A stretch of DNA of 5,625 nucleotides from a virus (taxonomy: Duplodnaviria > Heunggongvirae > Uroviricota > Caudoviricetes): the IMG/VR virus record IMGVR_UViG_2660238352_000014; one strand, written 5' to 3'. Both the position numbers and the translations under genes were made by a program. Positions within the stretch are counted from its first letter, which is position 1; the number at the start of each line of letters is the position of its first letter. Of this stretch, positions 1-4,606 are shown one piece after another. A model generated the notes under the pieces. It ran no database searches, had not been told where the DNA came from, and worked only from the letters and a program-made list of their open reading frames with translations.

Positions 1-1095
1 TACTACTGGAAGGAAAGGTATGCAGCGCCGTATGAGGCGGTTTACGGTGGGTATAAAGGCAAAGCTGCGCAGAATATTCACTTTGTGCCGTTGATGACGG
101 ATGAGCATGGTGTGAATGTGCCGACAAACGAGCCGTCAGAAGATCCGGACATTATCCCGGCGGGATACTATGGCGCTGCGTCACGCACTGCCAGTAACTG
201 GACGTCAGCCGATCGTAAAACGCACTTCAGTTCATGGGCGCGAAGAGGCCTTGTTTCAGACCGCCTGGCAGGTGCCATTTTGCAGTACGCCGGGCGGACA
301 TTATCGTTCCTTACCGGGCAGAGCGCACCGCAGTCGGGTGGTACAACTCCCGGTGATGATGTCAGTCCGGGGGTACCGGGTGTTGAGAAACCGCAGGATG
401 GCGGTGTTGCTGGTACTGGTCATGATGAGGCCGTGAGCAGTACCAGGACGGTGGCTGAATATGATGCGAACAGTGGAAATGGTGTATGGACAGAGCAGCA
501 GTGGGGGGCTGCCGGTGGCAAAGGCACTGTGACTGATGACGGTGGACGGAAAGCGCTGCGACTGGAAAAACAGCCCGGTAAACTGACGTCCTGGAAAATG
601 TTCCGTACTGTTGCAGTGGAGGAGGCAAAAAATCTTCTCAGCAAGGGGGGTGAAATTGCCGTACGGTTCAAAATTCCGGATGGAAGCGAACTGGTGAACG
701 GACAGTTTGTCTTTGGTCTCTACTGGCCGGTGTCGCAGTGGGCGTCAGGCGCGGCAGCAAACAGTATGCTGGCATCATTCTTCCTTCAGACGGATGCATC
801 AAATCTGAATCTTATGCACCACAAGGGCACGTCGAATGCACAACTGGGTACATTTGGTGCGTTTGACCATAACTGGCATACGGTTGTTTTCCGCTTTGCG
901 GGAAATAACAGCGAAAGAGTCGTTCCGGTGATTGATGGTACAGAGCAGACGGCGTTTGACCTTGTGATGTGGACAAATGATGGCTTTACAGCAGATACGC
1001 TGACGCTGACAGATATCACGGGGGCAAAAGCGACGTATCCTGTACTGCTTGATACGGTCACAGTCAAAGTTAACGAAAGCCGGGCATCATCATAA
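1..1095 (+). CDS. 3' portion of a large ORF (5' end outside window); C-terminal ~200 aa resemble a concanavalin-A/LamG-like lectin jelly-roll domain; possibly a NanS-p-type carbohydrate esterase moron or other glycan-binding phage protein
   Basis: Frame 1 is open from base 1 to TAA at 1093-1095, so the GTG at 85 in the ORF track is not the true start. C-terminal motifs such as FDHNWHTVVF and alternating hydrophobic beta-strand patterns are typical of lectin-like jelly rolls. In lambdoid prophages the position just upstream of S commonly carries such morons. Identity not verified. Confidence 0.6.
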   Translation, partial: YYWKERYAAPYEAVYGGYKGKAAQNIHFVPLMTDEHGVNVPTNEPSEDPDIIPAGYYGAASRTASNWTSADRKTHFSSWARRGLVSDRLAGAILQYAGRTLSFLTGQSAPQSGGTTPGDDVSPGVPGVEKPQDGGVAGTGHDEAVSSTRTVAEYDANSGNGVWTEQQWGAAGGKGTVTDDGGRKALRLEKQPGKLTSWKMFRTVAVEEAKNLLSKGGEIAVRFKIPDGSELVNGQFVFGLYWPVSQWASGAAANSMLASFFLQTDASNLNLMHHKGTSNAQLGTFGAFDHNWHTVVFRFAGNNSERVVPVIDGTEQTAFDLVMWTNDGFTADTLTLTDITGAKATYPVLLDTVTVKVNESRASS

Positions 1096-1100
1096 CCGGC

Positions 1101-1137
1101 AAAAAAAGCCGCCAGCGGCAGGAACGGAAGCTGGCGG
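1101..1137 (-). terminator. Intrinsic terminator oriented for leftward (minus-strand) transcription
   Basis: 8-bp stem GCCGCCAGC(1109-1116)/GCTGGCGG(1130-1137) with a 13-nt loop, flanked on the + strand by A7 (1101-1107), which is a U7 tract after the hairpin on the minus strand. No U-tract follows on the + strand. Confidence 0.45.
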
Positions 1138-1234
1138 AGGTAATCCCAATGGAGAATGTAAAGAAAAGATGCTTTCGTATATCGGTTTTTTAAATGAAAA
1201 CAGTTCTCATTGTCAACCATAACGGTAAGAAACT

Positions 1235-1429
1235 ATGACATTTGTTCATCAGGTGATGCTGTACTTCTGTACGGCGGTCTGTGTGCTGTATCTTCTTTCG
1301 GGTGGGTACAGGGCAGTGCGCGATTTCTGGCGCAGGCAGATTGATAAAAGGGCCGCAGAGAAAATCAGCGCCAGTCAGTCAGCCGGAGCAAAAACAGAAG
1401 CCCCACTCATTCCGGAACAACCTTCTTAA
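1235..1429 (+). CDS. Hypothetical small membrane protein (64 aa, one predicted TM helix)
   Basis: ORF with a hydrophobic stretch VMLYFCTAVCVLYLLSGG; weak SD (AAGAAA). Alternative frame 1281..1745 is open across this region, so the coding assignment is uncertain. Confidence 0.3.
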   Translation: MTFVHQVMLYFCTAVCVLYLLSGGYRAVRDFWRRQIDKRAAEKISASQSAGAKTEAPLIPEQPS

Positions 1430-1745: not shown

Positions 1746-1771
1746 CGGTGAGTCAGGGTCATCAGTAAAGA

Positions 1772-1779
1772 GCTGGTGG
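1772..1779 (+). other. Chi site (5'-GCTGGTGG-3')
   Basis: Exact octamer match on + strand. Confidence 0.6.
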
Positions 1780-1820
1780 CCCTTTTGTTGTTGTGAGCTT
1801 CCGAGTACGGGAGACGGGGT

Positions 1821-2040: not shown

Positions 2041-2550
2041 ATGAATAAACAATACGAACTGGTTGTTAAAGGGATAAATAATTACCCGGATAAGATTACT
2101 GTTACTGTAGCGCTGGAAACGGGTGGGTATACGTCACTGTTGTTGCCAAATGTGGTGATTGATCTTGATCGTGTTGAAGGTGCCACGCTGGAATTTTACG
2201 AAGCTGAGGCGAAAAAGAAGGCGAAGCAGTTTTTCATGGATATTGCTGCCGGGTTATGTGAAGGGGATGAACAGTCACAGGAAAAGTGCCTTTGTTCCGA
2301 AGATCGGTATACCATACAAATTAACAATGCATATAACACGATACTGTCAGAAAAAGATGATATCGAATCACGCATTGAAAAACTGGAGAATTGCGTCGTT
2401 GAACTGAATAAAAAACTGTCGACGCTGATGCCTTCTGAAGATGCAAAAAAACGCCGCGATGAGCAGTTCGCGGCGTTTTACGATTATTGCATTGAAGTTA
2501 CTCGCAGGAATTTTGTGAAGGCTTTTGAGGAGAGTAAATCTCTTCAGTAA
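2041..2550 (+). CDS. Hypothetical protein (169 aa), inserted between holin and endolysin; N-terminal beta-rich region, C-terminal coiled-coil-like helices, three Cys (C-x11-C-x-C)
   Basis: ATG 4 nt after the holin stop, using the SD-like sequence at the holin 3' end. GC looks lower than flanking lysis genes (first 60 nt about 30% GC by hand count). No recognisable homolog. Confidence 0.6.
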   Translation: MNKQYELVVKGINNYPDKITVTVALETGGYTSLLLPNVVIDLDRVEGATLEFYEAEAKKKAKQFFMDIAAGLCEGDEQSQEKCLCSEDRYTIQINNAYNTILSEKDDIESRIEKLENCVVELNKKLSTLMPSEDAKKRRDEQFAAFYDYCIEVTRRNFVKAFEESKSLQ

Positions 2551-2758
2551 GCTTAATGGCGGACGCTGCAATTAATTCAGGAAGGTCCGCAAGGTCATCT
2601 GTCAGTGGGAATGATGAAAAATCGGCGGCAGTTCTGTTAAGAATTGCTTTAACTAATTCCTTTTCCTCATCCGGCAACACGTTGATTAGAGCTACGACTG
2701 CTTGCCTGAGTGCGATTAAATCAGCAAAAGTTTGTTTTGGTAGATTTGGATAATCCAT
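2498..2758 (-). CDS. Hypothetical small acidic protein (86 aa), convergent with and overlapping the 3' end of the 169-aa ORF by 53 bp
   Basis: ATG at 2758-2756 (minus) is preceded by a strong SD (minus-strand ACAGAGGTGACT-ATG). The longer ORF-track start at 2830 has no SD. AT-rich codons (CTA, TTA, AGA) match the neighbouring inserted gene. Product is acidic and predicted helical. Confidence 0.5.
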   Translation of the reverse strand: MDYPNLPKQTFADLIALRQAVVALINVLPDEEKELVKAILNRTAADFSSFPLTDDLADLPELIAASAIKLTEEIYSPQKPSQNSCE

Positions 2759-2793
2759 AGTCACCTCTGTGTTTATCAGATTGACATACCCTG

Positions 2794-2812
2794 GCCAGTG
2801 CCCACCACTGGC
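2794..2812. promoter_or_regulatory. Perfect inverted repeat GCCAGTG-cccac-CACTGGC in the divergent intergenic region between the 86-aa minus gene and the endolysin; candidate operator or RNA hairpin
   Basis: 7-bp arms with 5-nt spacer seen directly; a perfect TTGACA hexamer lies at 2781-2786 on the + strand but lacks a convincing -10. Confidence 0.3.
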
Positions 2813-2869
2813 GGGGTGAAGGCTTAACATATCCAGGGATTCGGAACCGATAAATCCTGATAAATATCC

Positions 2870-3403: not shown

Positions 3404-3492
3404 GCAGAATATTTTGCTGAAAAATGCGGTTTGCTCACACGGGCGGATAACACGAAATCCTGCGAACTGACAAAAACTAAGTGAATAAAAGT

Positions 3493-3533
3493 AAAAACCC
3501 CGTTTGTTGGCTGCAAGCGGGGTTTTGTGTTTC
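3493..3533. terminator. Rho-independent terminator, probably bidirectional, downstream of the endolysin gene
   Basis: Stem AACCCCG(TTTG)/(CAAG)CGGGGTT with a ~7-nt loop followed by TTTTGTGTTTC on the + strand; A-rich run upstream gives a U-tract on the minus strand as well. Confidence 0.65.
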
Positions 3534-3559
3534 TGACCTTGGATAAGGCAAGGGAGAAC

Positions 3560-4358: not shown

Positions 4359-4381
4359 TCTTTTTATTATCCGGAGGATGT

Positions 4382-4606
4382 ATGAAGAAATTACTGGTAA
4401 CCGTAAAGCCTTTTCAGGGAACAATTCCGTTCCGTATTTTGCAGCGTGGTCGTGTTCTTGTTGAAGGTTCGTTCAGTGGTAAATGTACGCAATTACACTC
4501 CCGGACCTTTCAGGTGAATGCCACGAATGAAGAGCTAACCGTTGAGTGTACGATGAATGCCGCTAAATGCCGCATGGTATCCGCTGCATTACAGCCAGTG
4601 TGTTGA
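4382..4606 (+). CDS. Hypothetical protein (74 aa), conserved-looking small ORF downstream of Rz
   Basis: Strong SD (GGAGGA) 5 nt upstream of the ATG and host-like codon usage. No signal peptide or TM helix. Four Cys residues. Function unknown. Confidence 0.5.
   Translation: MKKLLVTVKPFQGTIPFRILQRGRVLVEGSFSGKCTQLHSRTFQVNATNEELTVECTMNAAKCRMVSAALQPVC

Follow-up and report, generated by a model that had tools for sequence, protein, structure and literature searches.

A 5,625-nucleotide stretch of viral DNA (IMG/VR record IMGVR_UViG_2660238352_000014, Caudoviricetes; hereafter the window) carries at positions 1101-1216, on the minus strand, a compact unit made of a promoter-like sequence, a leader and an intrinsic terminator. 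We consider it likely, with a probability of about 0.62, that this unit is a small non-coding RNA (sRNA) gene of a lambdoid prophage of the Shiga toxin (Stx) phage type, and that its product acts in trans. The unit has its elements in place, is conserved and modular, has no coding potential and occupies a position equivalent to that of validated sRNAs, namely PasA and PasC of enteropathogenic Escherichia coli (EPEC) strain E2348/69, which were established by Northern blot and by ligating and sequencing interacting RNAs (RIL-seq) (Pearl Mizrahi et al. 2021, PMC8550237). Judged by its sequence and by this analogy, it is probably an allele, undescribed and very common, of a kind of prophage sRNA locus that is known. 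The unit had been noticed earlier, in a reading of the letters alone, as an uncharacterised prophage sRNA of about 80 nt (the original prediction). Comparative evidence and the positional precedent of PasA and PasC uphold that proposal, but the type of locus is already known (Pas/EcOnc) and it is the allele alone that is uncharacterised. The elements named there, TTGACA at 1216-1211, a 17-nt spacer, TTAAAA at 1193-1188, a hairpin at 1137-1109 and U7 at 1107-1101, all lie on the minus strand exactly as described; about 50 nt, not the ~45 nt given, lie between the -10 and the hairpin. The features are as follows.

1211-1216, minus strand: -35 hexamer TTGACA, identical to the consensus at 6 of 6 positions
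1187-1192, minus strand: -10-like hexamer TAAAAA, 18 nt from the -35, 4 of 6 positions matching, with A at -11 and no T at -7
1101-1180, minus strand: predicted sRNA of ~80 nt, with a 5' end placed near A1180 (7 nt after the -10) and a 3' end in the U-tract
1163-1176, minus strand: possible small 5' hairpin GAAAG/UUUUC (RNA nt 5-18), tentative
1149-1156, minus strand: conserved single-stranded motif UUCUCCAU (RNA nt 25-32), candidate seed
1136-1141, minus strand: ACCUCC, an anti-Shine-Dalgarno-like motif seen in the sequence, running into the terminator stem
1109-1137, minus strand: terminator hairpin with an 8-bp stem, 7 pairs being G-C (5' arm CCGCCAGC at 1137-1130, 13-nt loop at 1129-1117, 3' arm GCTGGCGG at 1116-1109)
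1101-1107, minus strand: U7 tract, predicted RNA 3' end and left edge of a mosaic module
1093-1095, plus strand: stop codon (TAA) of the convergent DUF6645/SASA-esterase-like late gene, given for context
1235-1429, plus strand: DUF1378 gene (Pfam PF07125, E = 4.5e-35), starting 19 nt beyond the -35

Among 2000 dinucleotide-preserving shuffles, none produced T7 preceded by a perfect stem of 8 bp that included 6 or more G-C pairs. The 3' arm reads GCUGGCGG as RNA, and a single C (C1108) separates the hairpin from U7. A G+C-rich hairpin directly before a U-tract, the hallmark of an intrinsic terminator, is present on the minus strand only. Read on the plus strand, the same hairpin has A7 before it, AGGUAAUC after it and no U-tract, so that as a terminator it should serve leftward transcription alone. 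The T-run after the hairpin measures at least 5-6 in all alleles collected. Inspection of the stems revealed compensatory changes: position 8 switches from C-G to U-A with pairing kept, in both allele A and allele B backgrounds (see below), and the stem also tolerates a change of A-U to G.U and a U.G wobble, both of which are pairs only on the minus strand. As a separate observation, the terminator loop of one E. coli O18 locus (L010, 2501-2540) reads GGCAGGAATGGAC, the reverse complement of the usual loop GTCCATTCCTGYC (compare window 1117-1129), between unchanged stem arms; it seems that the loop was inverted inside the palindromic stem.

The promoter is best appreciated through its relatives, 41 unique copies of which were gathered, partly through BLAST and partly by scanning viral contigs for two patterns. 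The -10 originally proposed, TTAAAA (1193-1188, with a 17-nt spacer at 1210-1194), is present as stated and matches TATAAT at 3 of 6 positions, lacking both A-11 and T-7. The TAAAAA register (18 nt, 4 of 6) is nevertheless the better one, and it is the one conserved in relatives: a TA[A/G]AAA hexamer stands 17 or 18 nt from the -35 in 39 of the 41, despite indels elsewhere. This distance holds steady while the sequence of the spacer, the length of the A-run and the first transcribed bases all vary. In diverged copies the -35 is TTGACA or, in two copies, TTGACT, and such copies were recovered independently of the -35, either by BLAST (L008, L009 and L132) or by the terminator pattern (L089). 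The same build, TTGACA followed at 17-18 nt by a weak, A-rich -10, is shared with PasA and PasC. Both of these follow TTGACA, 17 nt and TCAGAA, and their published 5' ends lie exactly 7 nt past TCAGAA, so that the geometry with which we placed the candidate 5' end reproduces both. Since the published ends fit, a perfect -35 combined with an A-rich weak -10 is active in vivo at the Pas locus.

The unit is widespread and modular. Of 5426 complete E. coli genomes, ~979 carry the 130-nt unit, the median being 2 copies per genome. It is also present in 306 phage records, the majority of them from Stx1- and Stx2-converting phages, among them VT1-Sakai and VT2-Sakai. The window allele occurs unchanged in E. 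coli S19-651 and at about 98% identity in ATCC 25922. No feature annotation lies under the match among the matches listed. The original prediction had named conservation of promoter and hairpin in related prophages as a test, and both are indeed conserved there: the -35, the spacing, UUCUCCAU, the hairpin and the T-run persist across diverged copies in which the body falls to ~60% identity. As read from these sequences, conservation takes the form of a set of patches and not of a blanket. BLAST homology to most other prophages starts exactly where the T-run has its outer end, at window position 1101, and the C-termini of the esterases to its left differ, so that the U-tract marks the edge of a mosaic module.

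Three body alleles were distinguished, with the promoter context and the terminator common to all. Allele A is the type present in the window. Allele B (L089, L137 and L156) has a different body and a 36-nt terminator loop and occurs in 70 complete E. coli genomes, where it is unannotated. Allele C (L147 and L151), likewise unannotated, has a different and perfect 5' hairpin (CGAUAUGU/ACAUAUCG), retains UUCUCCAU and is found at full length in 36 complete E. coli genomes. A scan of species-representative genomes detected the body motif in two metagenome-assembled genomes only (L133 and L134), whose labels, Rhodocyclaceae and Muribaculaceae, are implausible; misbinning of E. coli phage contigs is the probable cause.

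A covariance model of 20 variants (R1) scored window 1101-1181 (minus strand) at 107.9 bits and a copy in prophage Sp5 of strain Sakai at 91.3 bits. When the 80-nt RNA was folded, a check suggested with the original prediction, the terminator hairpin formed as expected, but the whole RNA was just modestly more stable than its shuffles (z = -1.7) because nearly all of its structure is the terminator. Pairing of the GAAAG...CUUUC type at the 5' end is retained with differing loops in three relatives (L008, L009 and L017), and in L122 a G.U pair becomes A-U. We regard this 5' hairpin as tentative since its register is shifted in Sakai-type copies and RNAalifold, run on the 20 variants, called the terminator stem and not the 5' hairpin.

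Between the two hairpins, UCUCCAU or UUCUCCAU is present in 19 of 20 aligned allele-A variants, L008 having UUUCCAU, and alignment columns T26, T28, C29, C30, A31 and T32 are invariant. In silico, UUCUCCAU is mostly unpaired (unpaired probability 0.36-1.0). At the position of ACCUCC the relatives carry ACCUCC or ACCACC. Within the window, 12 translation initiation regions were scanned as targets. The best was the Shine-Dalgarno (SD) region of orf4382, an unassigned 74-aa open reading frame (ORF) at 4382-4606 (z = -3.95), followed by that of a TonB-like gene (z = -3.28). Nucleotides 21-30 of the sRNA (UACAUUCUCC) form 10 contiguous pairs with GGAGGAUGUA in the SD and start region at window 4366-4390 (plus strand). 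Both the orf4382 and the TonB-like pairings are of low-complexity purine/pyrimidine type and come from 12 tests, and are offered as leads only.

The unit had been described as free of ORFs, and this held: no reading frame is conserved in the relatives on either strand, and no minus-strand ORF starts downstream of the promoter. Rfam gave no match at the candidate interval at E <= 1 in the window, nor at the gathering threshold in seven related loci, and the same search detected STnc100 and AsxR elsewhere in related loci. Literature searches using the hairpin sequence, the names of flanking genes, EcOnc51/52, nanS-p together with sRNA, and the Sakai differential RNA sequencing paper found no description of this allele. 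The DLP12 prophage of E. coli K-12 (ybcW region) was considered as a counterpart and rejected, the esterase/DUF1378 arrangement being absent from it.

From Pfam scans and the annotation of near-identical E. coli genomes, the window was recognised as belonging to an E. coli prophage of the lambdoid, Stx-phage-like kind, whose late region it represents. Its genes follow in the order DUF6645/SASA esterase, candidate unit, DUF1378, DUF826, P21-type holin, DUF1327, lysozyme and Rz/Rz1, beyond which lie a gene for a TonB-C-like lipoprotein and a leftward DUF3950 gene. The esterase portion is the C-terminal part of the gene annotated as DUF6645 or "SASA family carbohydrate esterase", which in Stx phages is the NanS-p-like gene. 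The late genes all point rightward; the candidate unit runs leftward, convergent with the esterase gene. Its U-tract ends 5 nt from the esterase stop, in agreement with the predicted direction toward the 3' end of the large upstream gene, and in most relatives the T-run begins 1 nt past the stop. DUF1378 accompanies the unit and is annotated beside it in most matches. In Sakai Sp5 (L006, 4004-5313), IS629 splits the esterase gene, and the 3' remnant (ECs_5706) directly abuts the candidate unit.

Several other structures in the window deserve mention. Between the DUF826 and holin genes, the late-gene strand has a 12-bp hairpin with UUUUGUUGUUG after it (1755-1783, plus strand), and comparable plus-strand terminators are found upstream of the holin gene in prophages PP2 (L001, 3134-3163) and PP5 (L002, 2545-2574) of E2348/69. 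The hairpin at 1755-1783 might keep a polymerase that is not Q-modified from reading on into the lysis genes. The sole other terminator of comparable strength in the window (CGCCGCGA/UCGCGGCG followed by U7, 2445-2476, minus strand, z = -5) likewise faces leftward and lies inside the DUF1327 ORF, just past a leftward 86-aa ORF (2498-2758, minus strand) that has a strong SD and no Pfam match. A leftward hypothetical coding sequence is annotated at the matching position in strain O18, and this ORF looks like a reversed gene embedded in the lysis cassette. After the lysozyme gene there is a strong intergenic plus-strand terminator-like hairpin (3494-3526). The sole Rfam match in the window is to the rimP leader (3470-3558, minus strand; 27.5 bits where the gathering score is 47, E = 0.24) and probably arose by chance.

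A number of observations weigh against an sRNA gene. The interval as a whole evolves no slower than the neighbouring genes. A consensus promoter scan of the window did not call the candidate promoter, its -10 being poor, because TTAAAA has no A at position 2 and no T at position 6 (the missing T-7). Nor is the promoter significant by itself, since promoter-like sites occur at chance frequency in the window (4 found against 6.6 expected in the scan). The stretch upstream of the -35 doubles in part, on the other strand, as the translation-initiation region of DUF1378, an overlap that could explain some of the conservation there. Most of the collected stems were chosen by a pattern containing the stem, and covariation support therefore amounts to few events. 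Alignment of the candidate with the PasA and PasC loci by blastn, the method on which Zhu et al. base their criterion (>75% coverage), gave no alignment at the Pas genes. Model R1 scored PasC at 11.3 bits (E = 0.45), a second unit in PP2 at 10.4 bits and the EcOnc51/52 positions at 9-10 bits (E about 1-2). Finally, the Sakai copies of the window allele, in Sp5 (NC_002695.2, 1272086-1272219) and Sp15, are absent from the Hfq-CRAC (cross-linking and analysis of cDNA) list of enterohemorrhagic E. coli (EHEC) Sakai by Tree et al. The RNase E CLASH (cross-linking, ligation and sequencing of hybrids) tables showed no entry at the Sakai copy position among the entries listed. As both sets of tables are filtered and the CLASH result concerns the entries listed, these two negatives count as weak.

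Taking the favored sRNA reading, we infer transcription, an exact 5' end, Hfq binding, a seed and targets along the following lines. Host sigma-70 polymerase would start near A1180 from TTGACA, 18 nt and TAAAAA, either constitutively or depending on conditions, and would transcribe leftward against the late operon, halting ~80 nt on at the intrinsic terminator that abuts the esterase stop. From its 5' end the product would carry, in turn, a short hairpin, an unpaired U/C-rich stretch that includes UUCUCCAU and ACCUCC, and the terminator hairpin with its U7 tail, a layout that would be typical of sRNAs that bind Hfq and act in trans by base pairing. The RNA's most likely partners in a lysogen, whose late operon is silent, would be host or prophage mRNAs, paired at purine-rich ribosome-binding regions, and such pairing would alter the translation or stability of the targets. 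The suggested mode is analogous to the trans pairing deduced for PasA and PasC and demonstrated for other prophage sRNAs such as HnrS.

An unlikely alternative is that the terminator alone is functional, keeping stray leftward transcription from running antisense into the esterase/stx region or stabilising RNA ends, and that a promoter look-alike is kept by its overlap with the 5' end of DUF1378 while no discrete sRNA is made. The weakness of the -10, uncalled by the scan, fits such a look-alike, yet the 17-18 nt spacing is held though the spacers of the alleles differ (ATGAGAACTG..., TAAGTAAACAG... and TAATTTACTTA...), and abundant PasA and PasC are driven by the same promoter build. The sequence around and upstream of the -35 does overlap the DUF1378 initiation region. 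Speaking for an sRNA, UUCUCCAU is conserved between promoter and terminator. The lack of a Sakai record in the Hfq-CRAC list or among the CLASH entries listed also fits a terminator without an sRNA. Against this, there is no other leftward gene between 1216 and the next leftward terminator (2445-2476) that would need a terminator here.

Quite unlikely, in our view, is that the unit acts in cis as an antisense or insulator element. Convergent transcription and complementary RNA would damp read-through from the moron/esterase region into the lysis cassette in the lysogen, or RNase III would cut the late mRNA between esterase and DUF1378 during lytic growth. An insulator is, however, already present in the form of the plus-strand terminator-like hairpin at 1755-1783, before the holin gene, even if nothing at the unit itself halts rightward transcription, its hairpin having no U-tract on the plus strand. 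The predicted RNA is convergent on the late operon and fully complementary to the late transcript over 1101-1180; it stays clear of the DUF1378 ribosome-binding site. An antisense RNA could use any sequence, and a short conserved motif within a variable body suits a trans-acting seed better. Convergent sRNA genes are regular at moron junctions downstream of PR' (Tree et al., PMC4104026), which agrees with a cis role, but PasA and PasC, the analogues, are found on Hfq in many chimeras formed in trans.

That the unit encodes a very small protein is highly improbable: the plus-strand micro-ORF opposite the candidate sRNA (1136-1193) does have a perfect, well-spaced SD (GGAGGT, 1136-1141) before its ATG at 1149, and ATGGA(G) is conserved in relatives, but its 14 codons become 4-33 residues there, the frame shifting even between close relatives because the A-run varies by 1-2 nt, and the SD reads GGTGGT or GTGAG in other alleles, while the minus-strand ORF at 786-1220 is a mechanical one that has its start upstream of the promoter and crosses the esterase gene in antisense.

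Returning to the sRNA reading, the three alleles allow a broader idea, which we put forward as possible though doubtful. The slot between esterase and lysis genes may be a swappable sRNA cassette, in which conserved promoter and terminator flanks double as recombination anchors and the bodies are exchanged, PasA and PasC possibly being further diverged alleles. Each prophage would thereby deliver a different seed. That of the dominant allele (the one in the window and in Stx phages of the VT1/VT2-Sakai type) would be anti-Shine-Dalgarno-like, UUCUCCAU/ACCUCC, and through it the RNA would, in lysogens, reprogram how genes of the host or of co-resident prophages are translated.

In EHEC and EPEC, host regulation is rewired by sRNAs that prophages encode at moron junctions (AgvB, AsxR, StxS, HnrS and the Pas sRNAs). 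In the collections searched, no other occupant of the esterase-lysis slot is as common as the candidate: ~18% of complete E. coli genomes have it, often more than twofold or otherwise in multiple copies, as do most Stx1- and Stx2-converting phages of the phage collection. In Stx phages it sits one gene downstream of the stx genes, unannotated and absent from the sRNA studies searched. If it is expressed, a widespread regulator is added to the Stx-phage repertoire and the Pas locus, so far two related genes, becomes a cassette with multiple alleles; without expression, the unit is an ordinary terminator beside a promoter look-alike. An sRNA here will not surprise specialists, but its spread in Stx phages is wide and the matter is directly testable with existing data.

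The closest known systems are PasA and PasC. Their genes adjoin the holin-lysozyme operon beside a sialic acid esterase gene and are variable in sequence (Zhu, Shabalina and Storz 2026 preprint, doi 10.64898/2026.05.13.724894). Levels of both RNAs fall ~4- to 7-fold in an hfq deletion mutant under activating conditions, and it is on Hfq that their trans chimeras form (PMC8550237). When mapped on NC_011601.1, both proved to lie on the strand opposite to the esterase gene and ahead of the holin gene. Like the candidate, they are thus found between a SASA/sialate esterase gene and the holin-lysozyme cassette, opposite to the late operon. The sizes are also alike, 79-85 nt for PasA/PasC and ~80 nt as predicted for the candidate from promoter geometry, and the U-tract of PasC ends 2 nt past the esterase stop, to be compared with 5 nt for the candidate and 1 nt for most of its relatives. 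The terminators share a GCCAGC/GCUGGC core and a U7 tail, and the published PasA seed overlaps its terminator stem, into which the ACCUCC of the candidate also runs. In contrast, DUF1378 and DUF826 separate the candidate from the holin gene, whereas PasA and PasC directly precede it, and Northern blot and RIL-seq support belongs to PasA/PasC, the candidate allele being known here from its sequence. An anchored alignment with PasA/PasC showed as common features the promoter geometry, the GCCAGC/GCUGGC stem core and the U-tract, and nothing else. By analogy, then, the candidate probably works like a Pas sRNA and occupies the Pas locus; membership in the PasA/PasC sequence family is undemonstrated. 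Direct homology to PasA, PasC, EcOnc51/52 or the AgvB locus was rejected, blastn and the covariance model giving nothing significant, and the weak matches reflect resemblance of terminators. The second unit in E2348/69 PP2 mentioned above (L001, ~2768-2866, minus strand) is PasC-like and unannotated and lies between PasA and the esterase stop. It reads TTGACA, 17 nt, TGAAAA ... GCCAGCG/CGCTGGC, T7, and its terminator coincides with the published 'minor' 236-nt PasA 3' end.

In EHEC Sakai, EcOnc51 and EcOnc52 are Hfq-CRAC peaks in prophages Sp12 and Sp4 (Tree et al. 2014, PMC4104026) and were given as PasA homologues by Pearl Mizrahi et al. (PMC8550237). As with the candidate, they are convergent with the esterase gene, lie at or near its stop and have predicted Rho-independent terminators; their sequences are of the PasA/PasC type, unlike the candidate allele. 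HnrS (EcOnc10-12) is also multicopy, short, terminated by a hairpin and encoded in the late region of EHEC/EPEC prophages (PMC13502914), and it pairs with the ribosome-binding site of hha (Poudyal et al. 2026, PMC13502914). It differs from the candidate in its length (66 nt), its sequence and its position beyond the lysis genes (Sakai 1946819, 1779522 and 2234239), and identity with HnrS was ruled out by this difference of locus. AgvB, AsxR (Rfam RF02702 and RF02703) and STnc100/PasD (RF02076) are further prophage sRNAs, located at the moron junctions downstream of PR'. STnc100 and AsxR lie on the upstream side of the esterase gene (Sakai Sp5, L006 1923-2182), as opposed to 5587-5669 for the candidate. 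AgvB and AsxR are 51-60 nt long with a conserved 3' region of ~42 nt, and the candidate interval matches neither in Rfam. AsxR is nonetheless leftward and convergent, as the candidate is, and the variable 5' part and conserved 3' part of the AgvB/AsxR family are echoed by the three alleles described here.

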